The notes below the pieces were generated by a model. The model made no database searches, was not told the DNA's origin, and was given only the letters and a program-made list of their open reading frames with translations. Of a stretch of 32,000 nucleotides of DNA, positions 1,159-32,000 are shown piece after piece. The DNA is from Candidatus Saccharimonadota bacterium (lineage in GTDB: Archaea > Micrarchaeota > Micrarchaeia > Micrarchaeales > Micrarchaeaceae), in NCBI GenBank assembly GCA_963698035.1, contig OY969114.1:480001-512000 (forward strand). The letters run 5' to 3'. Position 1 is the stretch's first letter. Every line of letters begins with the position of its first letter. Position numbers and translations under genes: made by a program.

Positions 1159-3222
1159 CTACTCACTTTCGTGCCTTATGATTTTTATAATGCCAGGTTT
1201 TGGCCTGAATATATCGCCGCTTCTCTCAAGCTCCACTATATACTTATTGACAGTGGCAGCGTCCACTCCCGCTTTCTCGGCCTCCTCCACCAGCCTCTGC
1301 ATCTTCGCGCTGCCTTCGTCCGCCTCGAGCTTCCTTATTATGTTGAGCATCGTGTTTATCTTGTCAACCTTCTCCCTGGGCATGCCGGTTATTATCGCGT
1401 CGATGTCGTACCTGCCTCCACGATCCACAAGAAGCGTCTTAAGCATGAACTCGTTCAGTGATATCGCCACCTCCGCGTCGGCTATCTCCACCACTGACGA
1501 GAGCCTCGACTTGGCGCTCGCCTCAGCCATCCTTATTATTCCCTCTATCTGCCTCGGCGTTATTGGTGTGGCTCCCTGCTTCGCCCCCAGCTTCCTGAGA
1601 TCTATATAGTACTCCTGTATCCTCTTTGACGCCTCGACCATTATCCTCGGGAAAATGTTCTTCCTCGCATATGCTATGTACTTTCTGACGAACTCCCCCT
1701 CGATAGGCGGCCTCTCCACCTGCTCGTACTCCTGCACCTCAGATATCCTTGCCCCCGCAGCCTCGTGCTGCAGCAGTATGTGCCTAGCTATGCTTTTGTC
1801 CAGCTCGCTGTCCATTATGTCCCTTATCGGGAATATGAGGTCGAATCTTGAGAGAAGTGTAGGTGGTATGTCGAACTGCTCAGCAGGATATGCATTCGGG
1901 TCGAACCTTCCGAATTTGGGGTTTGCGGCTGCAAGCACCGCAGACCTCGCGGTGAAGGTCGCAATTATGCCCGCCTTCGCGACGCTGATTGTCTGAGACT
2001 CAAGTGCCTCGTGCAGCGCTGCCCTGTCGCTCTCATCTACTTTATCAAACTCATCGATGGCTACTATTCCACCAGATCCCAGTACCAGTGCTCCTGCTTT
2101 GAGCGTCCATCCCCCCTCTGAGAAGTCATCGCGCTCAGCTACCGCGGTCATTCCCCCTCCGGTAACAGACTTTCCGCTTACATAGATTCCCTTCGGCACC
2201 AGTCTCGAAACGGATTGGAGTATCCTGGTCTTTGCGCTTCCGGGGTCCCCTATGAGCAGTATGTGCATGTCGCTCCTGATTAGTCCCCCGTCGATGAGGG
2301 TCTTGCCTGGCGTGCCGCCGAAGAGCTGCAGCGCCACCGCCCTCTTTATCTCGTCATAGCCGTATATCGACGGGGCGATCGACTTCGCTATCTTCTCGAA
2401 TATCTTCGGGTCCTTGCCCAGCTCCTTTATCGTTCTCTCTTCCTCATCTGTTATCTCCAGGTCCGCAAACTCCTTCTGCTTCGGCACTATCGAAACCGTG
2501 TCAAGGAACATCGTATAGATGTCCCGCTCGAGCCTCCCCTTGGCGTTCCTCCTCGGCCTTATCCTCAATATTCCTGTAAGCTCGATCCTATCACCAGGTA
2601 TCACCGTGTTGACAAGGTCATCCTCTATCCAGACCTCCAGCTGCCACGTGGGCGAGCTCCCGCGCAACTTCTCAAGCGGATCCTGCACCGCAATCTTCTG
2701 CAGGTTTATGAATTCGGATTCCTCTGCTACCTGTTTCAGCGAGCGCCGCTTGCACGAGATGCAAAATTCAGGAAGCTCATCGTGGCCAGACCTGACCTTG
2801 TAGATCGCACCGCAGTATGTGCACTTGTAGGAGCCCATCTTGACCTTCGGGTTTATCTCAGACCTCTTTACTATCAGGCTGTCAAGCATTATCATCTTGC
2901 TTATGTATGCGGAACCGACGTCCTGCACAAGCGGGATGTTGACGTTCTGCCCAAAAAACCTTACGTGGACCTCCTTGCCTTCAAGGTCGAGGTTGCTCAT
3001 CTTTCCCCGCAGAGACTCGGTGGCGGCCTCCATTATCGGATCGGGCTGGTCGATAAGCGCCTCTGCTATCTCCGGGTCGAACTTTATCAGCTCCTTGAAA
3101 TCAACTGCAAGGCTCCTCTTGTCAGGAAAAGATATGACCAGTGAGTTTATTCCCTCCGAGCAGTACCTCTCGAAGAACTCGTCGAAGCGCGACTTTATGC
3201 CCTCCAAAGCGGCATCTACCAT
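1159..3222 (-). CDS. mcm: MCM replicative helicase
   Basis: Zinc motif 'CTYCGAIYK...CISCKRRS', Walker A 'IGDPGSAKT', Walker B 'AIDEFDK', arginine finger 'SRFDL'. The ORF track opens at a GTG (3237). The ATG at 3222 fits better with the TATA-like box at ~3252-3264. Confidence 0.95.
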   Translation of the reverse strand: MVDAALEGIKSRFDEFFERYCSEGINSLVISFPDKRSLAVDFKELIKFDPEIAEALIDQPDPIMEAATESLRGKMSNLDLEGKEVHVRFFGQNVNIPLVQDVGSAYISKMIMLDSLIVKRSEINPKVKMGSYKCTYCGAIYKVRSGHDELPEFCISCKRRSLKQVAEESEFINLQKIAVQDPLEKLRGSSPTWQLEVWIEDDLVNTVIPGDRIELTGILRIRPRRNAKGRLERDIYTMFLDTVSIVPKQKEFADLEITDEEERTIKELGKDPKIFEKIAKSIAPSIYGYDEIKRAVALQLFGGTPGKTLIDGGLIRSDMHILLIGDPGSAKTRILQSVSRLVPKGIYVSGKSVTGGGMTAVAERDDFSEGGWTLKAGALVLGSGGIVAIDEFDKVDESDRAALHEALESQTISVAKAGIIATFTARSAVLAAANPKFGRFDPNAYPAEQFDIPPTLLSRFDLIFPIRDIMDSELDKSIARHILLQHEAAGARISEVQEYEQVERPPIEGEFVRKYIAYARKNIFPRIMVEASKRIQEYYIDLRKLGAKQGATPITPRQIEGIIRMAEASAKSRLSSVVEIADAEVAISLNEFMLKTLLVDRGGRYDIDAIITGMPREKVDKINTMLNIIRKLEADEGSAKMQRLVEEAEKAGVDAATVNKYIVELERSGDIFRPKPGIIKIIRHESE

Positions 3223-3364
3223 CTTACCCCCGAACACTAAAACACCAGCAAATATAATATATCTGCATAGCGGTAAGAGTAGTATCGCTACTACGCCCTT
3301 TTTATTATCTCCAATAAAAAGCTTTTAGTGGCATACTACCAGATCAATGAGCAAGGTGTGAATA

Positions 3365-5008
3365 ATGGGAAGGTACATAGTGACGTCCGCGCTGCCTTAT
3401 GCATACTCTATGCCTCATCTCGGAAACTTTGTGGGTTCGGTTTTACCTGCAGATGTTTACTACAGATATCTAAAGATGAATAATGAAGATGCAATTTTTA
3501 TTTGCGGTTCTGACCAGCATGGCACTGCAGGTGAATTAAAGGCTGCAGAAGAACACACCACTCCAGAAGAGCTCTCAGAAAACATGCATGGAAAGCTCGA
3601 GCGGCTCTTCGAGAACTACAAATGCGCATTTACATATTATGGCAAGACAAACACCGAGACCAACAAACAGACTGTATACGAGTTCTTCAACGCCCTAAAG
3701 AAAAACGATTACATTGTAGAGATCGAAAACAGGCTGCCATACTGCGAAATAGACAAAAGGTTCTTGCCTGACACGTTCATAGAAGGCACATGCCCTAAAT
3801 GCAGTTATAAGCACGCAAGAGGTAACCAATGTGAGAACTGTGGAAGCCTGCTGGATCCCGACCAACTTATAGAGCCGCGTTGCAGGTTCTGCGGAAAGAG
3901 CGAGATAACATTCAAGACTGTCAAGAACCTCGCGCTTGCTTTCGACAAACTACAAGATAAAATATACGAGTTCATAAAGGTTGAATCCAAGAACGGCTGG
4001 AGCAAGAACTCTGTCAACAAGGCACTAAGCTACATAAAAGAGGGCCTGAAGCCTAGAGCTATAACTAGAAACACGAAGTGGGGGTTCCCCGTGAACGAAA
4101 AGGGCTTTGAGGATACCGTCTATTATGTTTGGTTCGATGCCGTGCTGGGCTACATCAGCATAACCAAAGATTGGGATGCCAAAAAATGGAAGAACTATTG
4201 GCTCAACGATGCAAAGCTCGTGCAATTCATGGGGAAAGACAACATAGAATTCCATACATTGATGTGGCCTGGAATGCTGATAGGGTCCAATCTCGGATAT
4301 ACGATGCCGACCACCATAAGAGCATCTGAATATCTGCTATCAAAGGGATTCAAGTTTTCGAAGACAGCAGGAGCTGGGATAGATATGCAAGATGCAATAA
4401 ATCTACTTAGCGCAGACTACTGGCGCTTTGTGCTGATGTACCTTTATCCCGAAACTGCAGATACGGAATTTACAGTCGAATTGGTGCTAAGCGTAGTCAA
4501 TGGAGTAATGAATGACAACATAGGCAACTTCGTAAACAGGGTGCTGAAGCTGTCTCAGGAGAACAAGGATATCATCAACAGAGATGCAAAACCCATAAAG
4601 AAGCATCTCGACGAAGCAGCGCAGATAATAGAAAAATACAAGCGCAGTTTCAACACTTTTGGTCTGAGAGAGGCACTCCAGTCTGTTGTTGAGCTTTCCG
4701 GACTCGGCAACTCCATAATGGGAAATTATCAGCCCTGGATGGTGGCAAAGAGAGCAAAGTCAGATGATGCGGCTAGAAAAGAGTTGTCTGAGCAAATGAC
4801 AACCCTAATAAAAATCGTATACCAGCTCGGTATACTGCTATGGCCCTATACTCCCGATTCAAGTATGAAGATATTGTCATATTTTAATGTAAGGAAAGAG
4901 CCAACAATGGAGCTTCTCGAACAGAACGAACAGCTAGATCTAGAGAAAAATGTAATACCACTATTCAAGAAGCTTGATGAGTCGTTCACCAAAAATTTCA
5001 ACCGCTAG
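3365..5008 (+). CDS. metG: Methionyl-tRNA synthetase (core enzyme, no fused C-terminal tRNA-binding domain)
   Basis: Class I signature 'PHLGN' (HIGH-type), 'KFSKTAG' (KMSKS-type), and the zinc knuckle insertion 'CPKCSYKHARGNQCENCG...CRFCG' typical of MetRS. Confidence 0.93.
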   Translation: MGRYIVTSALPYAYSMPHLGNFVGSVLPADVYYRYLKMNNEDAIFICGSDQHGTAGELKAAEEHTTPEELSENMHGKLERLFENYKCAFTYYGKTNTETNKQTVYEFFNALKKNDYIVEIENRLPYCEIDKRFLPDTFIEGTCPKCSYKHARGNQCENCGSLLDPDQLIEPRCRFCGKSEITFKTVKNLALAFDKLQDKIYEFIKVESKNGWSKNSVNKALSYIKEGLKPRAITRNTKWGFPVNEKGFEDTVYYVWFDAVLGYISITKDWDAKKWKNYWLNDAKLVQFMGKDNIEFHTLMWPGMLIGSNLGYTMPTTIRASEYLLSKGFKFSKTAGAGIDMQDAINLLSADYWRFVLMYLYPETADTEFTVELVLSVVNGVMNDNIGNFVNRVLKLSQENKDIINRDAKPIKKHLDEAAQIIEKYKRSFNTFGLREALQSVVELSGLGNSIMGNYQPWMVAKRAKSDDAARKELSEQMTTLIKIVYQLGILLWPYTPDSSMKILSYFNVRKEPTMELLEQNEQLDLEKNVIPLFKKLDESFTKNFNR

Positions 5009-8699: not shown

Positions 8700-9770
8700 A
8701 TGAACGACCTTGTTAACGACCTATTGGGACAACCGAACACAAGCACAGCAAGCAGCGCACAGGTGGCAGACTCTTCTGAAATCAAGATAGTGACAGTTGG
8801 ATTGGGTGGAGCTGGATGCAACATAGTGAACAGGCTTCTTAAGGCAGGGGTCAAGGGCACAGAGTTCATTGCGGTGAACACGGACGGCCAGCACTTCAAG
8901 ATAATAGATGACAGGATAAGAAAGATACTTATCGGAAAAGCGTTAACAAGGGGTCTCGGAGCGGGTGGTGATGTAAAGACAGGCGCAAAAGCGGCAGAGA
9001 TTGACAGGCCGCTTCTAGAAGCTGCGGTATCCGGCGCGCAGCTGGTCTTCCTTACCGCAGGCATGGGAGGCGGAACAGGAGGCGGAGCTATACCTATCAT
9101 GGCGCAGATCGCAAAGGAGCAGGGTGCGATCGTGGTCGCGATGGTTACCTACCCATTCGACCTTGAGCGGGTTAGGAAGGTAAAGGCAGAGGAGGGCATC
9201 CAGGAGCTCAGGAAGCACTGCGACAGCGTCATAATCCTGGACAACAACATGCTGGTCAAGCTGGTGCCGAACCTTCCGATGAACGAGGCGTTCGCGCTTG
9301 CGGACTCTGTCCTTGCAAAGGCGATAGGAGGCCTTGTCTGGACCATAACCCAGCCAAGCATGATCAACATAGACTTCGCCGACGTACGCGCAATAATGGT
9401 CGGAGGCGGCGTGGGATTCATAGCGGTCGGGACCGGAAAGGGAGCCGAGAAGGTCGAAGCAGCAGCGGAAGGGGTTCTTAAGAACAAGCTTCTTGACGTT
9501 AACTTCGAGAACGCAACAGGAGCCCTGATACACATCTCAGGCGGGTCATCGCTCACCATAGGCGACGCGATACACTCGGGCGAGATAATAACCGAGCAGA
9601 TGTCTCCAACAGCGAACGTAAAGTGGGGCGCAAGGATAATCCCAGGATACGAGGACACGCTAGAGATCGTAGCGATCGTAACCGGCGTCAAGGGTGCGAG
9701 TATCGTGGGAAGGCTGGAGGAGAGGAGCCAAGCGAGCGCCTCCTACGGCGACCTGGAGACAATCGGTTGA
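8700..9770 (+). CDS. ftsZ: Cell division GTPase FtsZ (paralog 1)
   Basis: 'GLGGAGCNIVNRL', tubulin signature 'GMGGGTGGGAIP', 'NIDFADVRAIM'. Confidence 0.95.
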   Translation: MNDLVNDLLGQPNTSTASSAQVADSSEIKIVTVGLGGAGCNIVNRLLKAGVKGTEFIAVNTDGQHFKIIDDRIRKILIGKALTRGLGAGGDVKTGAKAAEIDRPLLEAAVSGAQLVFLTAGMGGGTGGGAIPIMAQIAKEQGAIVVAMVTYPFDLERVRKVKAEEGIQELRKHCDSVIILDNNMLVKLVPNLPMNEAFALADSVLAKAIGGLVWTITQPSMINIDFADVRAIMVGGGVGFIAVGTGKGAEKVEAAAEGVLKNKLLDVNFENATGALIHISGGSSLTIGDAIHSGEIITEQMSPTANVKWGARIIPGYEDTLEIVAIVTGVKGASIVGRLEERSQASASYGDLETIG

Positions 9771-16185: not shown

Positions 16186-16827
16186 ATGGTCATGTCAGAG
16201 CAAGAGACAACGCAGGCGGCGCCGGAAAGCGGGCAAGAGAAGAAGATAACGAGAAAGCAGCTGCTTTTCCTGGTAGGCGCAGTCATAGTGGCGGTTATGT
16301 TCGTCAGCTCCTACGCAGCATTTGGCAGCGGCGGAGGCGTCAGCTCCGCCTCAACAAGCATAAAGCAGTCAACCTACGTGGTCTTCGGCAGCGCGAATGC
16401 GGTAGTGACTGGATACATGAACAGCATAACACTGATAGTCAAGCAGGGCAACGTCACGGGCACCATAAACCAGACCCTGTCGGGTCTGGAGGCTAACAGC
16501 TCGATAAATGATTACATACTGGCGTCCGGCACTTTCGTTATATACGCGTCGAAGTCAAATCCCTACCAGCTGCAGCAGCTCTTCCTATCGAAGCTGCCTC
16601 CAAACTCCATAGCGGTAAATGCGACCGAGAGGATTGCGATACCAAATGTCATCGCCCTCGGCCCACAGCCGCTAAGCGTATACACCAACATGACAAATTT
16701 CACCCTCTCGGTTGCAAGGCTGCAGCCACTCGGTGGCAACCTTACCGTCAGCGTTCAGGCTCTCGTATTTGAGAAGGGGCTCAATTGGTTCATATATCAG
16801 AACAACATTCAGGTATCTGAGGCATGA
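16186..16827 (+). CDS. Membrane-anchored extracellular protein, sequon-rich
   Basis: Charged N-terminus, single TM 'LLFLVGAVIVAVMFVSSYAAF', and multiple N-x-S/T sites. Overlaps the gltX start by 4 nt. Confidence 0.55.
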   Translation: MVMSEQETTQAAPESGQEKKITRKQLLFLVGAVIVAVMFVSSYAAFGSGGGVSSASTSIKQSTYVVFGSANAVVTGYMNSITLIVKQGNVTGTINQTLSGLEANSSINDYILASGTFVIYASKSNPYQLQQLFLSKLPPNSIAVNATERIAIPNVIALGPQPLSVYTNMTNFTLSVARLQPLGGNLTVSVQALVFEKGLNWFIYQNNIQVSEA

Positions 16828-18543
16828 GAATGGATAGCAATGTCAGCGATGTAATCAGGAAGTACGCGATAAAGAACGCGCACGATTATGGCAAGGCCGA
16901 TGCAGGCAGCGTGCTCGGCAAGGTGATCCCCACGGCGAAGGGCGCGCCTCTCCACGAACTGAAGATAGAGGTGAGCAGGATAGTTCGAGAGGTGAACCTA
17001 CTAAGTAGAGCAGAGATGGAAGAGGCGTACAAGCCCTTCAGTGCCGAGTTTGAGAAAAAGGCCGAGGAAACCTTCAGGAAGACCGAGAAGCCCAGGCTGG
17101 TGATAGAGGGCGCAGAGGAAGGAAAGGTGATTACAAGGATGCCACCTGGCCCAAGCGGCTACATGCACATAGGACATGTAAAGCAGGCATTTCTGAGCGA
17201 GGAGGCTGCAAAGATTTACAATGGTAAGTTCTACAGGTACTTTGACGATACGAATCCAGAGAAGTGCGAGCAGCGGTATGTTGACGAGATGATAAAGGAC
17301 CACAGATGGCTGGGGCTGAAGTTCGATAAGACCTACTATGCTAGCGACTTTGTGGATAAGATGTACCCGTATGCCAGAAGGATGATCGAAAAAGGTAAGG
17401 CATACGTATGCATGTGTTCAAAAGAGGAGATAAAAAAGAGGAGGTTTGAAGGCCGGGAGTGCGACCACAGGAAGCAGCTCGCGAAGGAGAACCTCGAACT
17501 ATTCGAAGGCATGCTGAACGGGGAGTTCAGGGAGGGACAGGCAGTTGTAAGATACAAGGGGGACATGTCCTCACTCAACTACAACCTCCAGGATCCGGTA
17601 CTGCTCAGGATAGTCGAAACAGCGCATTACAGAGCGGGAAACAAATACAAGGTTTGGCCCGTATACGATTTCAATACTCCCATAGTAGATTCGTTACAGG
17701 GAGTTACAGATGTAATACGGAGCAAGGAGTATGAGCTTCATGACGAGCTGGGGAGGCAACTGCTTCAGGCTCTCGGCCTGAGAATGCCGAGATTCCACCT
17801 AGAAGCTAGGCTCAACATAAAAGGGAATATAACAAAGAAGAGAGTCATTAAGCAGCTTATCGATGAGAAAAAGGTTGAGGGATGGGACGACCCGCGGCTG
17901 TTGACAATAATATCGCTGAGGAGGCGTGGCATAATGCCAGAGGCGATAAGGAACTTTGTCATGCGCCTCGGGATGACCAAGACCGACAGCTTCGTGCCAT
18001 TGGACATGCTACTAGCTGAGAACAAGAGGGTGATAGATCCAATTGCCAAGCACCTCTTCTTTGTTGCAGATCCTGTGAAGGTCACGGTAAGCGGTGCAGG
18101 AAATGTGGATGCAAAGCTGAGGCTGCACCCAACCAAGGACTTCGGCTTCAGGGAGTACAATGTTGGAGATATCTTCTACATAAGCAAGGAAGATGCAGAT
18201 GCTTTGAAGGTAGGCGAGGTAATAAGATTGAAGGATCTAATGGACGTGAAGATACTGCAGAGAGGGGGGTCAATCAAAGCAGAGAGGTGCGAAGGCGGAG
18301 CAGGAGGGAAGATAATACAGTGGGTATCAAAGAAGAAACTGCAGGAGGTGCGAGATCCTTGTCCCAGGTCCCATAGTCGATGATAACGAGAACTTCAACC
18401 CGAACAGCCTGCAGAGAGTAGCAGGATTTGTCGAAAGTTACATAAAGAAACTAAAGGCACGCGAGATAGTGCAATTCGAGAGGTTCGGATACTGCGTGCT
18501 TGACAGGAAGAGGCCGCTACAGTTCATCTACATATCTAGATAG
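16824..18543 (+). CDS. gltX: Glutamyl-tRNA synthetase (archaeal type), reading frame interrupted near the C-terminus
   Basis: 'PPGPSGYMHIGHVKQAF' (HIGH) and the conserved catalytic core. The frame ends at 18383 ('...QWVSKKKLQEVRDPCPRSHSR*'). The canonical GluRS C-terminus 'EILVPGPIVDD...REIVQFERFGYCVLDRKRPLQFIYISR*' is read in the +1 frame from ~18349 to 18543. Confidence 0.9.
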
Positions 18544-19776: not shown

Positions 19777-21999
19777 ATGCCCGACCTTCCTACGACAAGA
19801 TTCCTTATCGGACTCTCCACGATAGCCACTGGCGGCGTCACCAGGGAAGAGCTGATAAAGTACTTTACCGACCTCGTCAAGGACTCCTTTGGGATAGAGC
19901 GCGCAAAGGTCGTCGACCTCGACAGCGAGCATAGCGGAGGTACCATAGGCGGCCAGCTGATAAGCACCAGGAAGCAGTACGTCGACAATAGCCTCAGTGA
20001 CTATTCCTCCTTTCCGGAGCTTATCGGCTACAGCAACGAGGGATTCAAGAGCTATGCGGCGGTGCCGATAATGGCGGACGGCAAGGTTGTCTCGATGCTC
20101 GAGCTCCTCTCGCCCGCCGAGAGCAAGTTCACGCAGGAGATGATCAGCGGAGTATCTATAGGCGCGATGCTACTGGGATTTGCCCTCGCTTACAAATCCG
20201 AATACGGAAAGAGCACCAGGCTCGCAGGGTACTTCGATGCAGCATTCAACAGCGACAGCCCGCAGATGCTTGTCTCGTCAAACGGGGTGGTTGCAAAGGC
20301 AAACAAGGCCGCCACCAAGCTTTTCGGCTTCATGCAGCAGAGAGCCGAAGTCAAGCAGCTCCTCGGCATGGATTATGATAGACTGCTCTCGATATCGAAG
20401 ACGGGCGTGGCCGCTGCACTCCCCGTAAAGGAGAACGGCACCGACAAGACCTATTCCCTAATGGTGAGCAGGGCGAGCGAAGGGCTCCTCTACCTCTCGA
20501 TGCAGGATGTCTCAGATGTCTCCTCACTGAGGAACGCGCTCGCCTCTGTGATGAACAGCGACGACGTTTTCATAGCGTTCACAGACGAGCACCTCAACAC
20601 CTTGGGCGTCACCGAAAACTTCCAGCGCATCCTCGGATACGACAAGGACATGATGTCTGGCAAGAGCATAAGCGACCTTGTTGTAGAAAAGCAGAGGGCG
20701 GACTTCAGGGAGCTGGTAAAGAAAGAGCAGAAGGGTTCATTGAAGAGCACGGACCTCGCCTCGATGAGCGGCTATCCGACAAGGATGCACTTCTCTGTCT
20801 CGAAAGCGCTGAATGGCTATGCGATAATGTTCGCCAAAGCAGATGCAGAGAAGTACCTGCAGGCCCTGAGGGAGAGCCTCGACGACTTCACCGCGAACGC
20901 GGCCGAGATAGTGATAAGGGTTGACAGCATGGGCTACATAGTCTCGTGCAATTCCTCAGCTGAGGCTATGCTCGATTACACCAGGCAGGAGCTTGCAGGC
21001 AAGGAAATAAAATTATTGTACAAGGACCCATCGACCGTAGACCACGATATGGCATACGCGAGGAACCTGGGCAAGCCCGACAATTCCTACATAGACCTAA
21101 TAAAGAGGGACGGCACGATGGTGCCTGGCACCCAGTCAATACGGCTGCTTACCGACTCGGAAGGCAACTCCGAGTACCTGATAGTGGTGAAGGAACTCGC
21201 CAGCAAGCGCAGGATGGACGACCAGGAGTTCGAGCTCGGCAAGAGCGAGAGAGAGATAAAGAAGCTAAGATCTACAGGAGACCTGAAGTCGCAGTTCATA
21301 TACAATATATCGCACGAGCTCAAGACACCGCTGACCAGCATAAAAGGCTTCGCCAAGCTCCTCTCGACCGGCGAATTCGGGAAGCTGAACGAGGAGCAGC
21401 TCCAGTACATTCAGACTATATGCGACGAATCCGACAGGCTCATGCTGATAATACAGCAGGTGCTGGATGCCTCGAAGCTGGATGCACAGAAGGTGAAGCT
21501 CGACTTTAAGGAAGTGGACCTGACACAGCTTGGGAACAACCCAAGCATAGCCTCACTCCGCGAGGCTGCCGTGGAGAAGGGGCTCGTCTTTTCATGGAAG
21601 GTCGACTACGACGTTCCAAAGGTGCTCGCAGACCCCAACAGGCTGATCCAGATATTCGTCAACTTGGTCGGCAACTCGATAAAGTTCACCGAGAAGGGGA
21701 GCATCCAGGTCCACATATTCAAGAGGCCCCGAAAGAAGATACAGTGCGACATAATTGATACCGGAATTGGCATAAGCGAGGATGATAAGCAGAAGCTCTT
21801 CAAGAAGTTCTACCAGGTGCAGAAGAAAGGCATAGTAAAGCAGGACGGCTCCGGCACGGGCCTAGGACTCTCAATAACAAAGGAATTGGTAAAGCTCCAT
21901 GGTGGGGACATATCCTTCGAGTCGCAACTCGGGAAGGGCAGCAGGTTCTGGTTCACGATAAGGGTAGACTCAAAGACGAAGAAGGGATCACACGACTAG
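19777..21999 (+). CDS. Cytoplasmic sensor histidine kinase (GAF + PAS repeats + HisKA + HATPase_c)
   Basis: No TM segments. H-box 'ISHELKTPLTSIKGFAKLL', N-box 'IFVNLVGNSIKFT', G1 'DTGIGIS', G2 'GTGLGLSITKELVKLHGG'. Confidence 0.9.
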   Translation: MPDLPTTRFLIGLSTIATGGVTREELIKYFTDLVKDSFGIERAKVVDLDSEHSGGTIGGQLISTRKQYVDNSLSDYSSFPELIGYSNEGFKSYAAVPIMADGKVVSMLELLSPAESKFTQEMISGVSIGAMLLGFALAYKSEYGKSTRLAGYFDAAFNSDSPQMLVSSNGVVAKANKAATKLFGFMQQRAEVKQLLGMDYDRLLSISKTGVAAALPVKENGTDKTYSLMVSRASEGLLYLSMQDVSDVSSLRNALASVMNSDDVFIAFTDEHLNTLGVTENFQRILGYDKDMMSGKSISDLVVEKQRADFRELVKKEQKGSLKSTDLASMSGYPTRMHFSVSKALNGYAIMFAKADAEKYLQALRESLDDFTANAAEIVIRVDSMGYIVSCNSSAEAMLDYTRQELAGKEIKLLYKDPSTVDHDMAYARNLGKPDNSYIDLIKRDGTMVPGTQSIRLLTDSEGNSEYLIVVKELASKRRMDDQEFELGKSEREIKKLRSTGDLKSQFIYNISHELKTPLTSIKGFAKLLSTGEFGKLNEEQLQYIQTICDESDRLMLIIQQVLDASKLDAQKVKLDFKEVDLTQLGNNPSIASLREAAVEKGLVFSWKVDYDVPKVLADPNRLIQIFVNLVGNSIKFTEKGSIQVHIFKRPRKKIQCDIIDTGIGISEDDKQKLFKKFYQVQKKGIVKQDGSGTGLGLSITKELVKLHGGDISFESQLGKGSRFWFTIRVDSKTKKGSHD

Positions 22000-25758: not shown

Positions 25759-25830
25759 GCCCGAATAGCTCAGTGGTAGAGCGACTGGCTGTTAACCAGT
25801 AGGTCGCAGGTTCAATCCCTGCTTCGGGCG
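25759..25830 (+). tRNA. tRNA-Asn (anticodon GUU)
   Basis: Hand-folded cloverleaf. Acceptor GCCCGAA/TTCGGGC (7 bp), D stem GCTC/GAGC, anticodon stem ACTGG/CCAGT with loop CTGTTAA, T stem GCAGG/CCTGC with loop TTCAATC, discriminator G. No encoded CCA. Confidence 0.92.
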
Positions 25831-25891
25831 TTATGGTAAGGTTCAACCCCCTTTCATAAGTATTATAAACACATACATCTAATATCCCTCT

Positions 25892-27193
25892 ATGGCCACT
25901 TTAGAGGATTGGAAGGTCAGCGCTGACAAGCTCAACAAAAGGGTCATGGAAGACCCTCGCATAAGCGCAGTCAACAAGAAGCGCATAGCAGAACACGTTG
26001 TAAACCTGAACGGAGAGCGCAAGAACCCACGAAGCATCATAAGACATCTTTACGGGTTGCTCAAACTTATGGAATGCGTATCTTACAAAAGGGACATCAA
26101 TACCTTTACGGACAGGGACATAAAGAAAGCCATCCACGTAGTAGAGGAACAAACTTATCCTAAAAAGATTATGGAGAACGGGAAGCTCACAACAAAACAA
26201 GTCCCTTACAGCGAAGAGGTAAAGCTCCACTTTTACGCTGTGTGGGTCAAGTACTACAAGCTGGCGCTCGGTAAAGGCTACATGAAACCCGACAACGTGG
26301 CCTTCATAAAGATTACAGGTAAGGCTAACCAGAAACGAGACCCCGACTCGATACTCGAGCGTGAGGACATAATGAAGATGCTGGGTAAGTGCTACAATAT
26401 TAGGGACTCGGCCTTCCTATATTGTCTCTGGGAATCTGCGACCAGAATAAATGAGATACTATCATGCACAAAGAAGGACTTGCAGATTGTAAGCGCAAAG
26501 AAAGGGGAGTACGAAGCGATCCTGCACATCCACGTATCTAAAACAAAACAGCGTAAAGTCCCGTTGTTCGAATCCGTCCCTTACCTGCTTTCATATTTAG
26601 AGTCAAAGTATCTTCAGGATGCTCCCGACGAAGCTCCGCTCTGGCAACGAGTTCATGCTGGGCACGGCGCTGATAAAGGACTACAAGAACCCGAAGCCAG
26701 AAAACTATTAGCAGAGATAGGCATGCGAGCTGGGATAACGTCGAAGCGCCTTAATCCCCACAGCTTTAGATTCTCCCGAATAACTTATGAAAGCGAAATA
26801 GGTGTCCCGCAAGCATGGATAAAGGAGAAGACAGGCTTAACGCAGTCGAGCAATAGGATAGATGTCTATGCGAGGTTAAAGGGTACTGCGGTACAAGAAG
26901 GTTATCGCAAGCTGATACACGGGGAGACGACGCCGAAGGAAATAGTAATGCCTGTCGCTCCGTTGCAGAGATGTCCGAAGTGCGACAACGATATAAGGCT
27001 CAACGCTCTATTCTGCGACAAGTGTGGAGCTGTGCTGTCGCAGGACAAGAAGGATGTTGTCGATGAAGTAGACAAGAACCTTATCGATAAGGCGCTGGAC
27101 GAATACCTGAAAGACCCTGCGAACTTTAAGAGAGCGCTCGAGCGAGTATCCCATCAGGCTTTAGTAGAGGACAGAGAGCGAAAGAGGAAATGA
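25892..27193 (+). CDS. int: Tyrosine recombinase/integrase with a C-terminal zinc ribbon
   Basis: Catalytic-domain motifs 'ESATRINEIL' (Arg I), 'VSKTKQRKVPL' (Lys), 'NPHSFRFSRIT' (HxxR), 'NRIDVYARL' (Tyr). C-terminal 'CPKCDNDIRLNALFCDKCG'. Confidence 0.85.
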   Translation: MATLEDWKVSADKLNKRVMEDPRISAVNKKRIAEHVVNLNGERKNPRSIIRHLYGLLKLMECVSYKRDINTFTDRDIKKAIHVVEEQTYPKKIMENGKLTTKQVPYSEEVKLHFYAVWVKYYKLALGKGYMKPDNVAFIKITGKANQKRDPDSILEREDIMKMLGKCYNIRDSAFLYCLWESATRINEILSCTKKDLQIVSAKKGEYEAILHIHVSKTKQRKVPLFESVPYLLSYLESKYLQDAPDEAPLWQRVHAGHGADKGLQEPEARKLLAEIGMRAGITSKRLNPHSFRFSRITYESEIGVPQAWIKEKTGLTQSSNRIDVYARLKGTAVQEGYRKLIHGETTPKEIVMPVAPLQRCPKCDNDIRLNALFCDKCGAVLSQDKKDVVDEVDKNLIDKALDEYLKDPANFKRALERVSHQALVEDRERKRK

Positions 27194-27347: not shown

Positions 27348-28349
27348 TTATACCAATCCCCATGCACGTACAAGGCCTATTGTCGATAGGTAAATAGATT
27401 CGTGTGTGGTTGTAAAGTTTAAGAGATAAAAATCAAGAACCCTAACCGAATACTTTTGTACCATGATACGAGACGCTATCGCTTCAGGGGACTCAACAAG
27501 AGGAATAGAACGAGGAAGCATACGAGTATTGAGTGGTTGCGCTTCAGGGATTACTTTAGGGTACTTGGATACTTCAACATTATACTCGTCGATAATCTCT
27601 TTCCTTCGTGCAAGCCAGTACTTATAAAAGAACCTGTCAAGCTCCCACGAAGACGTTGCAGTAGTACGCAGGTTCTTTGAACTTGTCCCTATATATTTCA
27701 GCTTATCGGATGCAAGGTACATAAGGTCGGACTTTATTTTGCTGTTTGATGGAATCTTGGTATTGAACTGCTTATTTAACTCTGCGACCAGCTTTACCCT
27801 TATTTCCTCTGGGGTCTTTTCCTCTGTAATGCGAACCCGACCTTTTTCTTTTGTCGGTATCTCTTTAGGGTTAAACATACGAAACCCTATCGGCTCTCCT
27901 TTGAGGATAGAGACGATTTGTGTTTGGTACTGAAGAGCGTCGAAGGACATCAACGCTATAATCGAGTGTAAGATACCTGCTTTGATCTCTTTCTTTGTAA
28001 TATACTCCCCGACATAAGAGGTTATCAGAGACATTAATTCTTGATGGTACTTCTTTTCTGAGTGCTTTGTTATTTCTCTTAGCTTTTCTGCAAAATGCAC
28101 GTCAAAAATCTCTTTCTGTATCTGCTCGAGGTACTTTGCGATGTAAGAATATTGTAGCTGGCGCTCTATGGTCTTCGTCGTCATAGGTTGCTTGTTCAAC
28201 AAGAGAATGACCATTACCTCGTATGGTGTTGTTAACGATATAGGAATTGTATCGAGGTCGTTCGACATACCCAGCATCGATTCTTTCTGTAAATTACCGA
28301 CGACAGAGCGGTAAGTGTCCTCGACACGTTCGGCCACAAATATACCCAT
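27348..28349 (-). CDS. Orphan 333-aa protein, possible N-terminal wHTH
   Basis: The only long ORF in an AT-rich stretch. 'TPYEVMVILLLNKQPMTTKTIERQL' resembles a winged-helix recognition segment; the rest is unrecognised. A TATA-like TTTAAATA (minus strand, ~28368-28378) lies upstream of the start. Confidence 0.6.
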   Translation of the reverse strand: MGIFVAERVEDTYRSVVGNLQKESMLGMSNDLDTIPISLTTPYEVMVILLLNKQPMTTKTIERQLQYSYIAKYLEQIQKEIFDVHFAEKLREITKHSEKKYHQELMSLITSYVGEYITKKEIKAGILHSIIALMSFDALQYQTQIVSILKGEPIGFRMFNPKEIPTKEKGRVRITEEKTPEEIRVKLVAELNKQFNTKIPSNSKIKSDLMYLASDKLKYIGTSSKNLRTTATSSWELDRFFYKYWLARRKEIIDEYNVEVSKYPKVIPEAQPLNTRMLPRSIPLVESPEAIASRIMVQKYSVRVLDFYLLNFTTTHESIYLSTIGLVRAWGLV

Positions 28350-28544
28350 GTAGCAATCAACAATAGAATATTTAAACGTTCCTAATAGGCTTTTAATAGG
28401 TAGTCCTGTATAAAGCTAATATACATTATATGGCTAACTGCTATACGGCTTTTACATCCTTACCCTCGAAGTAGGGTATAGCTTTTTATATCTTTATATC
28501 TTTATATATAAGATTGAGTATAGGTTTTTGTATAAACCTAATAG
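28350..28544. promoter_or_regulatory. Divergent control region of the element (promoters/operators, possible origin)
   Basis: AT-rich 195 nt between divergent genes. Contains CCTAATAGG (28381) / TTAATAGG (28393) / CCTAATAGA (28537), GGCTTTTA at 28388 and 28447, the palindrome TACCCT-N6-AGGGTA (28461-28478), and tandem TATATCTT units (28487-28510). Confidence 0.6.
28487..28510. repeat. 8-nt tandem repeat TATATCTT TATATCTT TATATATA (three phased TATA-like boxes)
   Basis: Read directly from the sequence. Ends 35 nt upstream of the RHH gene ATG. Confidence 0.8.
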
Positions 28545-28775
28545 ATGATGGAAATGGAAAACGAAGACCCGAACGCAACCGACGGCCTGAAGACAACCCA
28601 CGTAAAGAAAATCAACCTTACGTCGATATATCTGAACCCATCCCCCGAGCTGAAGTCGTGGATAGCGGAGCAGAAGGCTCGACATGGTGCAACGTTCTCG
28701 GCGCTGGTAAGGGTTGCGCTGGTTGAGAAGATGCACCGGGAGACGACGCCGATAGTGGCGCAGGCGACAGCATGA
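28545..28775 (+). CDS. Ribbon-helix-helix (CopG/Arc/MetJ-type) DNA-binding protein
   Basis: After an acidic N-terminus: beta-strand 'KKINLTSIYLNP', helix 'ELKSWIAEQKARHG', helix 'FSALVRVALVEKM'. Confidence 0.6.
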   Translation: MMEMENEDPNATDGLKTTHVKKINLTSIYLNPSPELKSWIAEQKARHGATFSALVRVALVEKMHRETTPIVAQATA

Positions 28776-28963
28776 CGTACGAAGATTATATTATAAGAGC
28801 GGTTGTAGACGCACTCCCTCGCCTGAGGGACAATAGCAGGCTTACGCCAGCGCACAGGCGTTTCGTGGCGATGGTCGAGGGGTATGTTAATGCAAGGAAG
28901 CAGGACGGGATGATAGCCACGCAGGCTGGAAGGCCTGCTGTCGCTAAAGAGGTTATTGCATGA
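28772..28963 (+). CDS. Orphan small protein (63 aa)
   Basis: ATGA overlap with the upstream RHH gene. No recognisable motif. Confidence 0.45.
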   Translation: MTYEDYIIRAVVDALPRLRDNSRLTPAHRRFVAMVEGYVNARKQDGMIATQAGRPAVAKEVIA

Positions 28964-29124
28964 GATACAGACGCAGACACCAACCACCATCACAGGAGAT
29001 AATCGTGCGGAAGACGTTGCAGACCACAACACAGCGTCCTCAGGTACTCCAGCCTGGAAGCGCCGGTGCGGTGTTTATCGGTAAGGTAAGGCAAAAGATC
29101 CAGGAAGAACAAAAGGCGAGATGA
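28960..29124 (+). CDS. Orphan small basic protein (54 aa)
   Basis: Hand-translated: MRYRRRHQPPSQEIIVRKTLQTTTQRPQVLQPGSAGAVFIGKVRQKIQEEQKAR. ATGA overlap upstream, and its stop is 1 nt before the next ATG. Below the ORF-track cutoff. Confidence 0.35.
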   Translation: MRYRRRHQPPSQEIIVRKTLQTTTQRPQVLQPGSAGAVFIGKVRQKIQEEQKAR

Positions 29125-29125
29125 A

Positions 29126-29578
29126 ATGGAAGCGTGCTATCGATGCGGTTATGTTAATTCTCCTTTGCTGAGTTCAGGCCAGCCGTTTAATTGTATCCGA
29201 TGCGGAGCGCCACTCGGAAGACAGGGATGGCTATCAAAGAACGAACGACCACAGCCGAGACCTCAGAGGGAGGATACCAAAGACGCAGAAAGAGATGACA
29301 AAATGGATGGGATAACGCTTATGCAAGTTCAGGAACAGGGTAAGACGCTGTGGCCGACTGACCTTCAGGTAAAGACTCTGCTATCGCTCGGGGTCTCAAG
29401 AGAAGACATCGAAGGCCTATCTCGTACTGAAGCTGGGGAGCTTATTCGCAAGAAGCTCGAGGAGAAGGGAGCGAGGTATACAGAAATGCTATGGTGTCCC
29501 TTTTGCTCTGAACTGCATCCTGTTCAGCATAGTAAATCGGTACGGGATTTCAAGGAATGGAAAGCGAAACAAAAATAA
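29126..29578 (+). CDS. Orphan zinc-ribbon protein (150 aa)
   Basis: N-terminal 'CYRCGYV...CIRCGAP' zinc ribbon, a charged linker, and a C-terminal 'CPFCSELHPVQH' Cys/His cluster. Confidence 0.5.
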   Translation: MEACYRCGYVNSPLLSSGQPFNCIRCGAPLGRQGWLSKNERPQPRPQREDTKDAERDDKMDGITLMQVQEQGKTLWPTDLQVKTLLSLGVSREDIEGLSRTEAGELIRKKLEEKGARYTEMLWCPFCSELHPVQHSKSVRDFKEWKAKQK

Positions 29579-29590
29579 TCGGCGATAATT

Positions 29591-29773
29591 ATGGATTTGA
29601 ACTTGAAAGGGAAACAGGTTTTAGTAATAATGAAGGACGGCTTCATTAAACATGGTCTACTTCTCGATGCACAGCCGAACTTCGTTGTCCTGCAATTTCA
29701 GGATGGTAAAGAGGAGATAATCAGCTTCAGCACGATTTCTGTAATAAAGGAAAATGGGGGGCGGACACGATGA
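29591..29773 (+). CDS. Sm/Hfq-like fold small protein (60 aa)
   Basis: 'LKGKQVLVIMKDGFIKHGLLLDAQPNFVVLQFQDGKEEIISFSTISVIKE' follows the Sm1/Sm2 strand pattern (compare Hfq '[25 protein letters not shown]...VYKHAISTVVP'). Confidence 0.45.
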   Translation: MDLNLKGKQVLVIMKDGFIKHGLLLDAQPNFVVLQFQDGKEEIISFSTISVIKENGGRTR

Positions 29774-30843
29774 CCATAGACGACGTTATGAAGCAAATAA
29801 GCGAGAGGGGGTACGGGTTCGTAAACCTTTCATACGACCCCAAGATAAATTCCGAATTTCTGGGACTCAAGTATTACCGCCTGCTCCCTGAAAAATTTAA
29901 TGATTATGAGCATCAGCTCCAGCGCCATCGTTTTGATAAGCTGGTAAGCAATAATGGATACGCTCTCGACTCAACCCTCTACTGCATTATGAAGGTCGAC
30001 AACGATTCGCTGAATCGCCTCTGTGCTACTCCTGAGTTCGAGGACTTTACATACACGCTGGGTTTCTTTGACATCCCAGAAGCAGAGTTAAATGACATCG
30101 AGGGACGGAAACAAAATCTTCAGGAAGTCAGAGGTATGTTTAGCAAGCATCACACAATCGAGGAGATAAAATCCGAGATTATCAAATGTTATACCGACCC
30201 TAATAACAAGGGAAGCCACAATCAAGCAATATGGACAAGCCTGCCTCTCGATAGCGTAGAAAAGCGCTCGATAGGGGACACTACAACCTACAAGATAAAG
30301 ATTGCAGGACGGGAGATGGCGCTTACCAGCATGAAGCTCCTCGATTCAAAGAGTTTCAGGGCAAAGTTTCAAGACTTGTTCGGTGTCCAGCTCCCGTTTT
30401 GCAGAACTGAATTATGGTCGATGTTTACCCTTTACATAAATTCGTTAATATGTACCGAAGTAGTCAGAGACACAACAAGCGAGCGGGATATGATCAGAGA
30501 GAATGTAAAGAACCACATCGAAGGGAGTATCGCTGTCCCGACCTATGACGAAGCTATGAATTCATGGAACAGCATAAGGATAGGCGAAGGCGACAACCTC
30601 TACATCTTTCCTAAGCATCTTTTAGAGGGCATTAAAAATCAGGTGGGACGGGAGATAAACGTGAACAACGTTGTCGATGCTATTGCAGATTGGTACATCA
30701 CGTCAACTCCACGCAAGTTAAAGGATAATAAAAAGCAGGTGAGGTTCTGGCGATTAAGGAAGAGCGCCTTTGACCTTTCAGGCATCGCACAGGAAGAGGA
30801 TGACCGACAAGGCGCTTTAATCGAGAGTGGCGAGCATGAATAA
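29770..30843 (+). CDS. Orphan 357-aa protein; tentative primase-polymerase (AEP)-like motifs
   Basis: ATGA overlap upstream and an 8-nt overlap with the helicase gene. Weak AEP-like motifs 'LYCIMKVDND' (hhhDxD), 'NKGSHNQAIW' (sxH), 'LDSVEKRSIGDTTTYKIK'. Not a secure assignment. Confidence 0.5.
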   Translation: MTIDDVMKQISERGYGFVNLSYDPKINSEFLGLKYYRLLPEKFNDYEHQLQRHRFDKLVSNNGYALDSTLYCIMKVDNDSLNRLCATPEFEDFTYTLGFFDIPEAELNDIEGRKQNLQEVRGMFSKHHTIEEIKSEIIKCYTDPNNKGSHNQAIWTSLPLDSVEKRSIGDTTTYKIKIAGREMALTSMKLLDSKSFRAKFQDLFGVQLPFCRTELWSMFTLYINSLICTEVVRDTTSERDMIRENVKNHIEGSIAVPTYDEAMNSWNSIRIGEGDNLYIFPKHLLEGIKNQVGREINVNNVVDAIADWYITSTPRKLKDNKKQVRFWRLRKSAFDLSGIAQEEDDRQGALIESGEHE

Positions 30844-32000
30844 GACAATAATCTATGGTATTGCTGGGTCGGGTAAGACTGCAAAGATAATAGAGCTTAT
30901 CCGTACACGACATCCTGACAGGCTAGGCGAGTGCTGTGTAATCAGCTTCTCAAGGTCGGCTGTACGCAACCTTAGGGAGCGAATAGGGGTAAACAACGCC
31001 AAGGAAGAGTACGACCGCAAGGATTTAGAGGGGTTTAGGACGATTCATAGTATTTGCTCAAGGTTAATGGAGTTGAGCAAAGAAATATTTTTGACAGAGG
31101 GAGACATCGAGAAGTTTATGGAGCAAAAACACATAGATTTCAAACAAGAGGACGAGCTGTACGACGAGCAGAGCGATGGCCAGCGCCTTCTTTCATTAAT
31201 CGACTACATAAGACACACGCAAGTAAAAAGCATAGATAACTTGAGCGCCAGAGACCTGCATCTTCAGATAGGGTACTATCTGGCGCAGTATGGCCACTTC
31301 GACAAAATCATAGCGGACGTTCAGATAATTCGAGACTTGATACAAGCATACGAGGACTATAAGAAAGAAATCGGTAAGCTCGACTATACTGACATCCTGT
31401 TATTGTACCTAAGCAATCCCGTACAAACAGGGTATAAAGTTCTTGTAGTAGACGAGTTTCAAGACATGAGTCCGCTTATCTACAAGATCATAAAAACATT
31501 CGAGCAGGGAGCGGACTACGTTTACTACGCTGGCGACCCGAATCAAGCAATCTATACATGGATGGGAGCTGACCCCCACTTCCTAATAGACGAGATAAAG
31601 GATGCTGACGAAGAGATACTGCTCAATAAGTCGCATAGAGTAGCGGATAAGGTCTATGTTGTCGCAAAGGATACCATAAACAGCAACTCGAGGGACAAGA
31701 TAGATTTTGAAATAGAGTGTGTAAACAAAGGGGATGTAAAAAGGATTTCTGAAGACGATGTGGTCAGCATAGCGAAGACGACAGGCGCTTCAGGGACGAC
31801 CTACATACTGGCTCGTACCAACTGGATGAAGAGACGCATACTAAAGGCGCTTATGCAAGAGGGGGTCGAATTTTCAGAGATAAGCGGAAATAAGGTATGG
31901 ACAATTAAGTTAATCAACATAACCAACGCTCTCTTATCGATAAAGAACGGGACAGCGCTCAAAATCGACTGGCTGAAGGCCTTTATCGATGTAGTACCAT
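30836..32000 (+). CDS. UvrD/Rep/PcrA-like superfamily 1 helicase (partial; runs off the window)
   Basis: Hand-translated open frame from the ATG at 30836 with no stop to 32000. It is absent from the ORF track. Walker A 'YGIAGSGKT', motif II 'VLVVDEFQD', motif III 'AGDPNQAIYTW', motif IV-like 'NKSHR'. Confidence 0.85.
   Translation, partial: MNKTIIYGIAGSGKTAKIIELIRTRHPDRLGECCVISFSRSAVRNLRERIGVNNAKEEYDRKDLEGFRTIHSICSRLMELSKEIFLTEGDIEKFMEQKHIDFKQEDELYDEQSDGQRLLSLIDYIRHTQVKSIDNLSARDLHLQIGYYLAQYGHFDKIIADVQIIRDLIQAYEDYKKEIGKLDYTDILLLYLSNPVQTGYKVLVVDEFQDMSPLIYKIIKTFEQGADYVYYAGDPNQAIYTWMGADPHFLIDEIKDADEEILLNKSHRVADKVYVVAKDTINSNSRDKIDFEIECVNKGDVKRISEDDVVSIAKTTGASGTTYILARTNWMKRRILKALMQEGVEFSEISGNKVWTIKLINITNALLSIKNGTALKIDWLKAFIDVVP

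Follow-up and report, generated by a model that had tools for sequence, protein, structure and literature searches.

A compact SF1 helicase and its non-catalytic upstream partner as the likely replication cassette of an element integrated in an archaeal tRNA-Asn gene

The 32,000-nucleotide (nt) stretch of contig OY969114.1 analysed here (positions 480,001 to 512,000 of the forward strand, GenBank assembly GCA_963698035.1; called the window below) ends in two overlapping genes, which code for a protein of 357 amino acids (aa) and a UvrD-like helicase of superfamily 1 (SF1). We consider it likely that this pair is the replication cassette of a plasmid-like or virus-like element of ~10.2 kb, integrated in an archaeal tRNA-Asn gene. 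The upstream protein is most likely a primase-less replication protein (Rep) built on a non-catalytic domain, which we call X, and the pair a cassette of the pTN2/pEXT9a type with a new Rep-partner domain. The initial annotation of the window had proposed either a replication module or a two-gene defence cassette. Our results support the former, but the reason that had been given for it, primase motifs in the 357-aa protein, proved to be wrong.

The helicase gene starts with the ATG at 30836 on the plus strand, in another frame than the 357-aa open reading frame (ORF; 29770-30843, plus strand). It runs past the end of the window, as had been stated, and 388 of its 530 codons lie at 30836-32000. 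The window was prolonged by 4 kb with Logan contig L002, and in the resulting extended coordinates the gene ends at 32428. The 8-nt overlap of the two genes, ATGAATAA, was confirmed. Co-translation, which had been deduced from it, is a reasonable inference and is strengthened by relatives in which the two genes overlap likewise. The complete helicase (P0002, 530 aa) consists of the domains UvrD-helicase, UvrD_C and UvrD_C_2 only. The check for fused domains that had been advised was made on this full-length protein with Pfam and revealed neither a nuclease nor any additional C-terminal domain. The UvrD/Rep motifs were located where they had been described, with Walker A (GIAGSGKT) at residues 8-15, motif II (VDEFQD) at 205-210 and motif III (GDPNQAIY) at 233-240. 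Motifs Ia, IV (LNKSHR), V (TIHSAKGLE) and VI (YVAFTRSK) are also intact. Only the Q motif is missing, as in the pTN2-type SFI helicases, since a Walker A that begins at residue 8 leaves no space for it. Compared with PcrA, the stretch between motifs IV and V, including the 2B region, is ~75 residues shorter, and the ~100-residue C-terminal extension of PcrA is absent, to judge from the alignment end points.

The part of the helicase encoded in the window matched Pfam UvrD-helicase with E 1.9e-26 and 94 bits. The match to phrog_1967 was much stronger (E 2.8e-64, 219 bits) and covered residues 3-525. With the use of tblastn, homologues were found over ~96% of the length in the plasmids pTN2, pCIR10, pP12-1, pEXT9a, pAMT7, pIRI33, pIRI48 and pMETVU01 (E 1e-27 to 1e-18). 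Three of these plasmid helicases were scanned against phrog_1967 and gave 307 (pTN2), 247 (pMETVU01) and 178 bits (pIRI48). The best phage matches, from Dinoroseobacter phages R26L and R5C and Pseudanabaena phage Pan1, extended over 97% of the length (E 4e-35 to 3e-30). By these sequence matches, the helicase is a member of a clade of compact SF1 helicases without a Q motif that is specific to mobile genetic elements and unites the pTN2-type SFI enzymes with phrog_1967. A gene for a modular replication protein precedes the helicase gene throughout this clade, apart from the reversed order in L009-L011 described below. In a rough neighbour-joining tree, which has no support values, the helicases found beside X grouped apart from the thermococcal-plasmid and phage clades.

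The 357-aa protein consists of a lineage-specific N-terminal part (residues 1 to ~150), the X domain (~152-340) and an acidic tail (341-357). It had been called an orphan, and it indeed has no match in Pfam (E <= 1), PHROG or PADLOC; the word-index search also returned nothing except the protein itself. However, an exhaustive phmmer search over 1.84 billion representative proteins yielded 22 other proteins at E <= 1e-3. Two of them, P0132 and P0141, are giant repeat proteins that match a short N-terminal motif only. They were rejected, which left 20 genuine relatives. Two alignments were made, one of the full proteins (A1) and one of the X domain only (A2). The region common to the family is the C-terminal ~190 aa at ~152-340, in which W327 is invariant and L208, P209, I250, R325 and F329 are nearly so. 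The alignment contains no conserved acidic, His, Cys or Tyr column and no Walker A or TOPRIM motif. With no such column conserved, the X domain is very unlikely to be an enzyme. A role as a rolling-circle nickase was likewise rejected, as neither an HUH nor a Tyr motif is conserved.

In the AlphaFold 2 (AF2) model of the protein, residues 110-343 mostly have a predicted local distance difference test score (pLDDT) of 80-96, with one dip to 64. The X fold is a beta-meander followed by helices and then by a C-terminal helix-helix-hairpin unit that is winged-helix-like. This unit is basic in 21/21 sequences (mean net charge +7), and an acidic tail follows it in all 21 (mean -4). From this charge pattern we infer that X binds DNA. 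The domain has no relative in the Protein Data Bank (PDB) by profile search, and the best Foldseek match in the PDB had an E of 0.15.

The N-terminal parts of the family members are diverse. The first 150 residues of the window protein have a counterpart in P0122 only. P0143 carries Prim-Pol (E 4e-17) and PriCT_1 (E 6e-10) in front of the X domain, and P0140 shows a weak LigD_Prim-Pol match there (E 4e-4); matches to archaeo-eukaryotic primase (AEP) models are limited to these two members. P0123, P0125 and P0131 end in zinc ribbons, and some N-terminal parts resemble winged helix-turn-helix regions, as judged from the sequences only. A word-index profile search with the X-domain alignment found only P0133, from Candidatus Aenigmarchaeota. 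Loci searches with closer X subsets gave nothing in IMG/VR and just the already known contig in metagenomes. Separately, we observed that residues 45-101 of the window protein (29902-30072; LVSNNGYALDSTL) match a motif of NNGYALD type that is repeated in P0132 and P0141 (NNNGYALDADLAAIAKSGDW; E 1e-8 and 1e-4). This likeness may be merely a short common motif.

The co-occurrence of the two genes, which had been named as a decisive check, was examined in the contigs that encode X. A compact UvrD-like helicase (530-574 aa) adjoins the X gene in nine of nine informative contexts. Besides the window (8-nt overlap, helicase of 530 aa), these are L003 with an 8-nt overlap and a helicase that is 49% identical, L004 with a 4-nt overlap and 30% identity, L005, where a Prim-Pol-X fusion is followed by the helicase, and L006, L007/L008 and L025/L026, each with an adjacent helicase. 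In L024 the next ORF begins VKKIKVFGCAGTGKTT and is a 47-aa fragment. The gene order is reversed in L009-L011, with a 313-nt gap, so that X lies upstream of the helicase in 8/9 contexts. L023 was too short to judge. When the phrog_1967 scan was applied to the full-length helicases of these contexts, which leaves out the 47-aa fragment of L024, all eight matched end to end with 200-219 bits. No further replication gene was recognised in the small elements that carry the pair.

This arrangement resembles that of the pTN2/pEXT9a-family plasmids, whose SFI helicases lack the Q motif and are directly preceded by a large Rep ORF of modular build, and in which the helicase clades track the type of Rep (PMC2926602, PMC3543421, PMC3973330). 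In pTN2, pEXT9a and pMETVU01, as in the window, the helicase is of the same family with Walker A at the extreme N-terminus, and the partner gene immediately precedes it in the same orientation; overlaps are of 4-8 nt, and that of the 671-aa Rep ORF of pMETVU01 with the helicase gene is 8 nt. The upstream ORF of pTN2 is a proven primase-polymerase (PMC2926602, PMC3543421, PMC3973330), while pEXT9a-like plasmids encode a Rep without a prim-pol domain (PMC3543421). The latter plasmids are therefore like the window in having a modular partner that can do without this domain. A further likeness to the pTN2 family is an Hfq-like gene in the helicase transcription unit, which several of its plasmids, but not all, possess (PMC3543421), together with repeat-bearing intergenic DNA beside the cassette. 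There are also differences. The Reps of the pTN2 family exceed 650 aa, in contrast to 357 aa in the window, and the Hfq-like gene lies upstream of Rep in the window but downstream of the helicase in the plasmids. The window element is integrated in a tRNA gene and has its own integrase, and its archaeal host, with a GC content of 52%, probably lies outside Thermococcales. Finally, no similarity of X could be detected either to PolpTN2, including the PriL-like domain at its C-terminus, or to the Reps of pIRI48 and pMETVU01. A hidden Markov model (HMM) of the X domain run against all ORFs of pTN2, pIRI48, pAMT7 and pMETVU01 gave nothing better than E about 1, and hhalign of the X family with the pMETVU01 Rep gave E 0.44.

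Comparable systems are small integrated archaeal elements whose replication protein, arCOG07809 (Mpal_2033), unites a primase, an SF1 helicase, a helix-turn-helix domain and a Zn finger (PMC4158269). Like the window element, they are small, archaeal and tRNA-integrating, and some variants lack the primase (PMC4158269). The zinc ribbons at the ends of P0123, P0125 and P0131 may be compared with the Zn finger of arCOG07809. These proteins differ in that their modules are fused in one polypeptide; they were compared with X and the helicase by description only.

The second line of evidence comes from phages. The structural search of the 357-aa protein, which had been suggested at the outset, failed in the PDB as described above, but Foldseek of the X model against BFVD gave phage AEP primases as top matches (E 1e-8 to 3e-4). 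They include a 572-aa "DNA primase small subunit" (E 1e-8), the primase of Dinoroseobacter phage R5C (E 4e-7) and a 611-aa Prim-Pol protein (E 3e-4); an unnamed viral protein of 215 aa was also matched (E 3e-7). The R5C primase is the product of a gene that overlaps the homologue of the window helicase. Its only Pfam assignment is AEP (AEP-TOTE) at residues 42-168, which leaves ~400 residues unassigned. At the sequence level, hhalign of the family profile with the primase of Podoviridae sp. ct3Et533 aligned window residues 168-311 with primase residues 328-469 (E 8e-4). When the X-domain HMM was applied to every ORF of the phage and plasmid loci that had been retrieved, three phage primases led the list (E 9e-4, 0.017 and 0.18), and in all three the match lay in the C-terminal, post-AEP part. 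The family profile gave no significant hhalign match to the R5C primase, HTVC027P gp05, the HTVC027P primase or the 252-aa protein of PMBT28, and tblastn of the 357-aa protein against the phages and plasmids gave no match.

Pairs of an AEP primase and a UvrD-like helicase occur in R5C (gp076/gp077) and Pan1, both of Nanhaivirus, in Pelagibacter phage HTVC027P and in Podoviridae sp. ct3Et533. Their helicases are homologous to that of the window over the full length, at 26% identity and E up to 4e-35. In R5C and Pan1 the upstream primase gene overlaps the helicase gene by 14 nt, which recalls the overlap in the window, and the C-terminal non-AEP part of the R5C primase resembles the X fold (E 4e-7) with weak sequence likeness. 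In other phages the helicase homologue is placed between primase and DNA polymerase. The phage pairs differ from the window in that their X-like domain forms the C-terminal end of a primase whose AEP domain (AEP-TOTE) looks active, and in that they belong to bacterial viruses which encode their own DNA polymerases. On this basis X appears to be the domain that follows the AEP part in a class of primases acting together with helicases of this family. The window protein has X but no primase domain.

The DnaG C-terminal domain binds DnaB. A tentative and more far-reaching reading, which we regard as possible but not probable, is that X is the counterpart of that domain, a helicase-coupling and origin-binding module of AEP-primase/SF1-helicase replisomes that is common to tailed bacteriophages and archaeal plasmid-like elements. 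It would be either fused to the primase or used as a stand-alone initiator that brings the helicase of the element and, together with the Hfq-like protein, perhaps also host priming to the iterons.

Upstream of the X gene lies a 60-aa ORF (29591-29773, plus strand), which overlaps its start by 4 nt. This ORF had no LSM/Hfq profile match in Pfam, where the only hit was DUF2642 at E 0.03. The AF2 single-sequence model (pLDDT 82) shows five beta strands in an Sm fold. In the Foldseek search of the PDB, the top 21 matches were all Hfq, with a template modelling (TM) score of 0.77, a root-mean-square deviation of 1.2 A and 28% identity for S. aureus Hfq (1kq2) and TM 0.75-0.81 for M. jannaschii Hfq. 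The ORF is thus predicted from its model to have the Hfq/Sm fold. A 56-aa ORF located just upstream of the L010 helicase is 32% identical to it.

The helicase gene is followed by a 430-bp gap with repeats at extended coordinates 32498-32646 (L002 1838-1986). The array contains, in order, six to seven direct (T)TACTAC(G/A)YC copies around a palindrome with 12-nt arms, a TATA-like box and two inverted copies. Five of the 17 [TC]TACTAC sites of the 36 kb fall within 130 nt, and none of 200 shuffles was as dense. In L003 the region after the helicase gene (2516-2675) is laid out alike, but its unit, CTACA(C/G)CT, has diverged; six direct copies of it are followed by a TATA-like box and inverted copies. 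The position of the array is kept while its sequence has diverged, as expected of sites that co-evolve with a DNA-binding protein. We regard the array as candidate origin iterons, operators or both. As a separate observation, paired inverted CCTATATAGG-like boxes adjoin the helicase gene in distant relatives (L007 10657-10773; L009 1745-1910), and weaker ones flank the array of the window element (L002 1778-1798 and 1945-1965). Such boxes may act as TATA elements of promoters or belong to an origin.

The limits of the element were determined from the tRNA-Asn(GTT) gene, which ARAGORN placed at 25759-25830 on the plus strand. The left attachment (att) repeat, CTGCTTCGGGCGTT, lies at its 3' end (25819-25832) and comprises the last 12 nt of the gene and 2 more nt. 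A second copy, exact over 14 nt, was found 10.2 kb downstream at extended coordinate 36020 (L002 5360-5373), and the match extends to 19/20 with one indel. L002 stops 16 nt past this copy. The chance expectation of such a 14-mer match was estimated at ~0.05, and the site is the canonical att position. It allowed us to conclude that the pair lies inside an integrated element of ~10.2 kb and that the two repeats are probably its attL and attR. The GC content drops from ~0.52 to ~0.45 at the tRNA gene. Genes that could be recognised in the element encode two tyrosine recombinases, several small and zinc-ribbon proteins, a small membrane protein and the X-helicase pair. No primase, polymerase, other initiator or replication protein was recognised within its ~10.2 kb in Pfam and PHROG scans.

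Accessory proteins are able to activate UvrD-family helicases, as RepD of rolling-circle plasmids does with PcrA and phiX174 gpA with Rep. By functional analogy, X would be a partner of the same kind, encoded by a mobile element, binding at the origin and recruiting and activating an SF1A helicase. RepD and gpA differ from it in that they are HUH nickases that use a host helicase, whereas X has no HUH or Tyr motif and its helicase is encoded by the element. In the mechanism that we propose, the operon would be translated in a coupled way in the order Hfq-like protein, X, helicase. X would bind DNA via its basic, winged-helix-like C-terminal part, and the most plausible target is the iteron-like array downstream of the helicase. 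It would then recruit or activate the helicase. As the element has no recognised primase or polymerase, priming and synthesis would be left to host enzymes. In the AEP-X fusions and in the phage primases that end in an X-like domain, X would tether the primase to the helicase.

Several points weigh against the assignment of the pair as a replication cassette. The links of X to the helicase and to the repeats are putative. X has no solved structural relative, so its function is deduced from context, and no relationship to the Reps of pTN2, pIRI48 or pMETVU01 could be detected. The sequence links between X and the phage primases are weak (E 8e-4 to 0.2), and the Foldseek output for these primases gives no aligned coordinates. 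Among the N-terminal 150 residues of the window protein, 20-102 have a pLDDT below 50. The array, which contains a TATA-like box, may serve as operator or promoter for the operon downstream of it and not as an origin. Finally, the element may have decayed into a remnant that does not replicate.

The repeats also bear on the first of three other explanations, in which X would chiefly be a transcription regulator that uses them as operators, and the helicase would act separately in repair, recombination or rolling-circle replication with a host initiator. The basic winged-helix-like part of X agrees with such a role, and so do the repeats, which flank a TATA-like box ~60 nt upstream of the next ORFs. 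However, this explanation does not account for the strict adjacency or overlap of X and helicase across very divergent elements (helicase identity 30-49%, measured in two contexts), nor for the AEP fusions and the rough co-clustering of the helicases by partner type. We consider it unlikely as an alternative. The two roles are moreover not exclusive, as plasmid initiators often autoregulate.

The pair as an anti-virus defence cassette carried as cargo, similar to Gabija or to another system with a UvrD-like helicase, is more doubtful still. The two-gene layout with a UvrD-like helicase is that of Gabija, many GajB models in PADLOC match the helicase (best E 2.4e-24, 84 bits), integrated elements often carry defence genes, X has no recognisable function, and AEP-TOTE, the best Pfam model of the related phage primases, is named for a conflict system. 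On the other hand, GajA is an OLD-family ATPase with a TOPRIM nuclease. The absence of such motifs from the 357-aa protein had already been noted, and none was found in the family alignment, nor does X have a nuclease motif or a conserved catalytic residue. PADLOC gave no match for the 357-aa protein, P0124 or P0143. The likeness to GajB may well be generic UvrD similarity: at 84 bits it does not exceed the Pfam UvrD-helicase match of the fragment (94 bits) and is far under the 219-bit end-to-end match to phrog_1967. X relatives are fused to AEP domains (Prim-Pol/PriCT_1 in P0143, a weak LigD_Prim-Pol in P0140), relatives of the helicase occur between phage primase and DNA polymerase and in the replication operons of the pTN2 family, and the small elements with the pair have no other recognised replication gene.

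The least probable reading makes the 357-aa protein a strongly diverged AEP primase-polymerase with an N-terminal catalytic DxD/His, and the pair a primase-plus-helicase replicon. The motifs on which this had been based, CIMKVDND (72-79) and GSH (148-150), are present but not conserved even in the closest homologue, P0122. VDND of motif I aligns with DGDA (KDGDA) in P0122, and nothing corresponds to it in the remaining 19 members; GSH of motif II is replaced by EGRR and falls within helix H144-156 of the prediction. In favour of this reading, the first 150 residues have no assignment, the D-x-D follows a predicted beta strand (E70-75), a one-residue shift could align it with DGD of P0122, and other X proteins do have an N-terminal AEP domain. 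Nevertheless, neither alignment brings the DxD into register, no Pfam AEP family matched at E <= 1, a region of ~150 residues that is predicted to be largely helical and modelled with low confidence is short for an AEP core, the conserved part of the protein is the C-terminal, non-catalytic domain, and primase-less Reps stand beside this type of helicase in pEXT9a-like plasmids (PMC3543421).

The pair had been expected to be new for its lineage in either case. This holds only in part: the cassette type, a helicase with an upstream Rep, is already known (PMC2926602, PMC3543421), but the X domain appears new. It has no counterpart in Pfam or the PDB, and no description of it was found in the literature checked. 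The link of X to the C-termini of phage primases also appears new, as does the presence of the cassette in tRNA-integrated elements beyond Thermococcales and Methanococcales, including one of a Candidatus Aenigmarchaeota member. The range of the pTN2-like cassette, so far hyperthermophilic Thermococcales and Methanococcales, thereby comes to include integrated elements of other archaea, DPANN among them, and the locus links archaeal plasmid and bacterial phage replication modules. To our knowledge, the SF1 UvrD-like helicases are the least understood replication helicases of mobile elements, and we know of no account of how they are loaded and coupled to priming in pTN2-type plasmids or in phages with the same helicase, including those of the Z-genome type. 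X is a small, well-folded, non-catalytic domain that accompanies the helicase alone, fused to an AEP domain or as the tail of a phage primase. It is a concrete candidate for a helicase coupling or loading factor, and the Hfq-like protein, X, the helicase and the candidate iteron site make up a system that is testable in vitro. Concerning the phages of the Z-genome (2-aminoadenine) type, we observed helicase homologues directly upstream of the DNA polymerase in Acinetobacter phage vB_AbaS-Bhz20 and Salmonella phage PMBT28 (L014, L015), which are of this type, and in both the helicase is near a gene for a PurZ-type adenylosuccinate synthetase.

The host genes of the window were identified by family searches. 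MCM (1159-3237, minus strand), methionyl-tRNA synthetase (3365-5008), FtsZ (8700-9770), archaeal-type glutamyl-tRNA synthetase (16824-18383) and a PAS histidine kinase (19777-21999), one of the two-component kinases found, flank the element. This set of genes indicates that the host is an archaeon.

Within the element, the tRNA gene is followed by a 433-aa tyrosine integrase (25892-27193, plus strand) that matches Pfam Phage_integrase (E 1.6e-8) and ends in a C-terminal zinc ribbon (Zn_Ribbon_1, E 8.5e-6); its XerA-like match in NCBIfam is under the family cut-off. A 333-aa ORF (27348-28349, minus strand) is divergent from the replication operon and has no family match beyond faint PADLOC hits to KwaA and PglX (E about 1e-3). 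Between it and the plus-strand operon there is a divergent AT-rich intergenic region (28350-28544), in which the repeat search found the short repeats TTATATCTTTATATCT and TGTATAAAGCTAATA, the latter twice. In pTN2-family plasmids the predicted origin precedes the replication operon (PMC3543421). By analogy, this region is a candidate promoter or origin region. The operon begins with small, tightly packed ORFs on the plus strand (28545-29578 in the ORF list), which code for proteins of 76 and 63 aa and a 150-aa zinc-ribbon protein; none had a secure family match in the Pfam scan.

A second, short tyrosine recombinase of 208 aa (L002 4092-4718, extended 34752-35378; Phage_integrase E 1.8e-21) is encoded near the right end of the element, whereas the 433-aa integrase is at the left end. 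The two could both belong to one element or could reflect two elements in tandem. A small membrane protein of 77 aa with two hydrophobic segments is encoded at L002 2808-3041 (extended 33468-33701). Small membrane proteins with two such segments serve as capsid or envelope protein in some archaeal viruses, and the element could be viral instead of plasmid-like.

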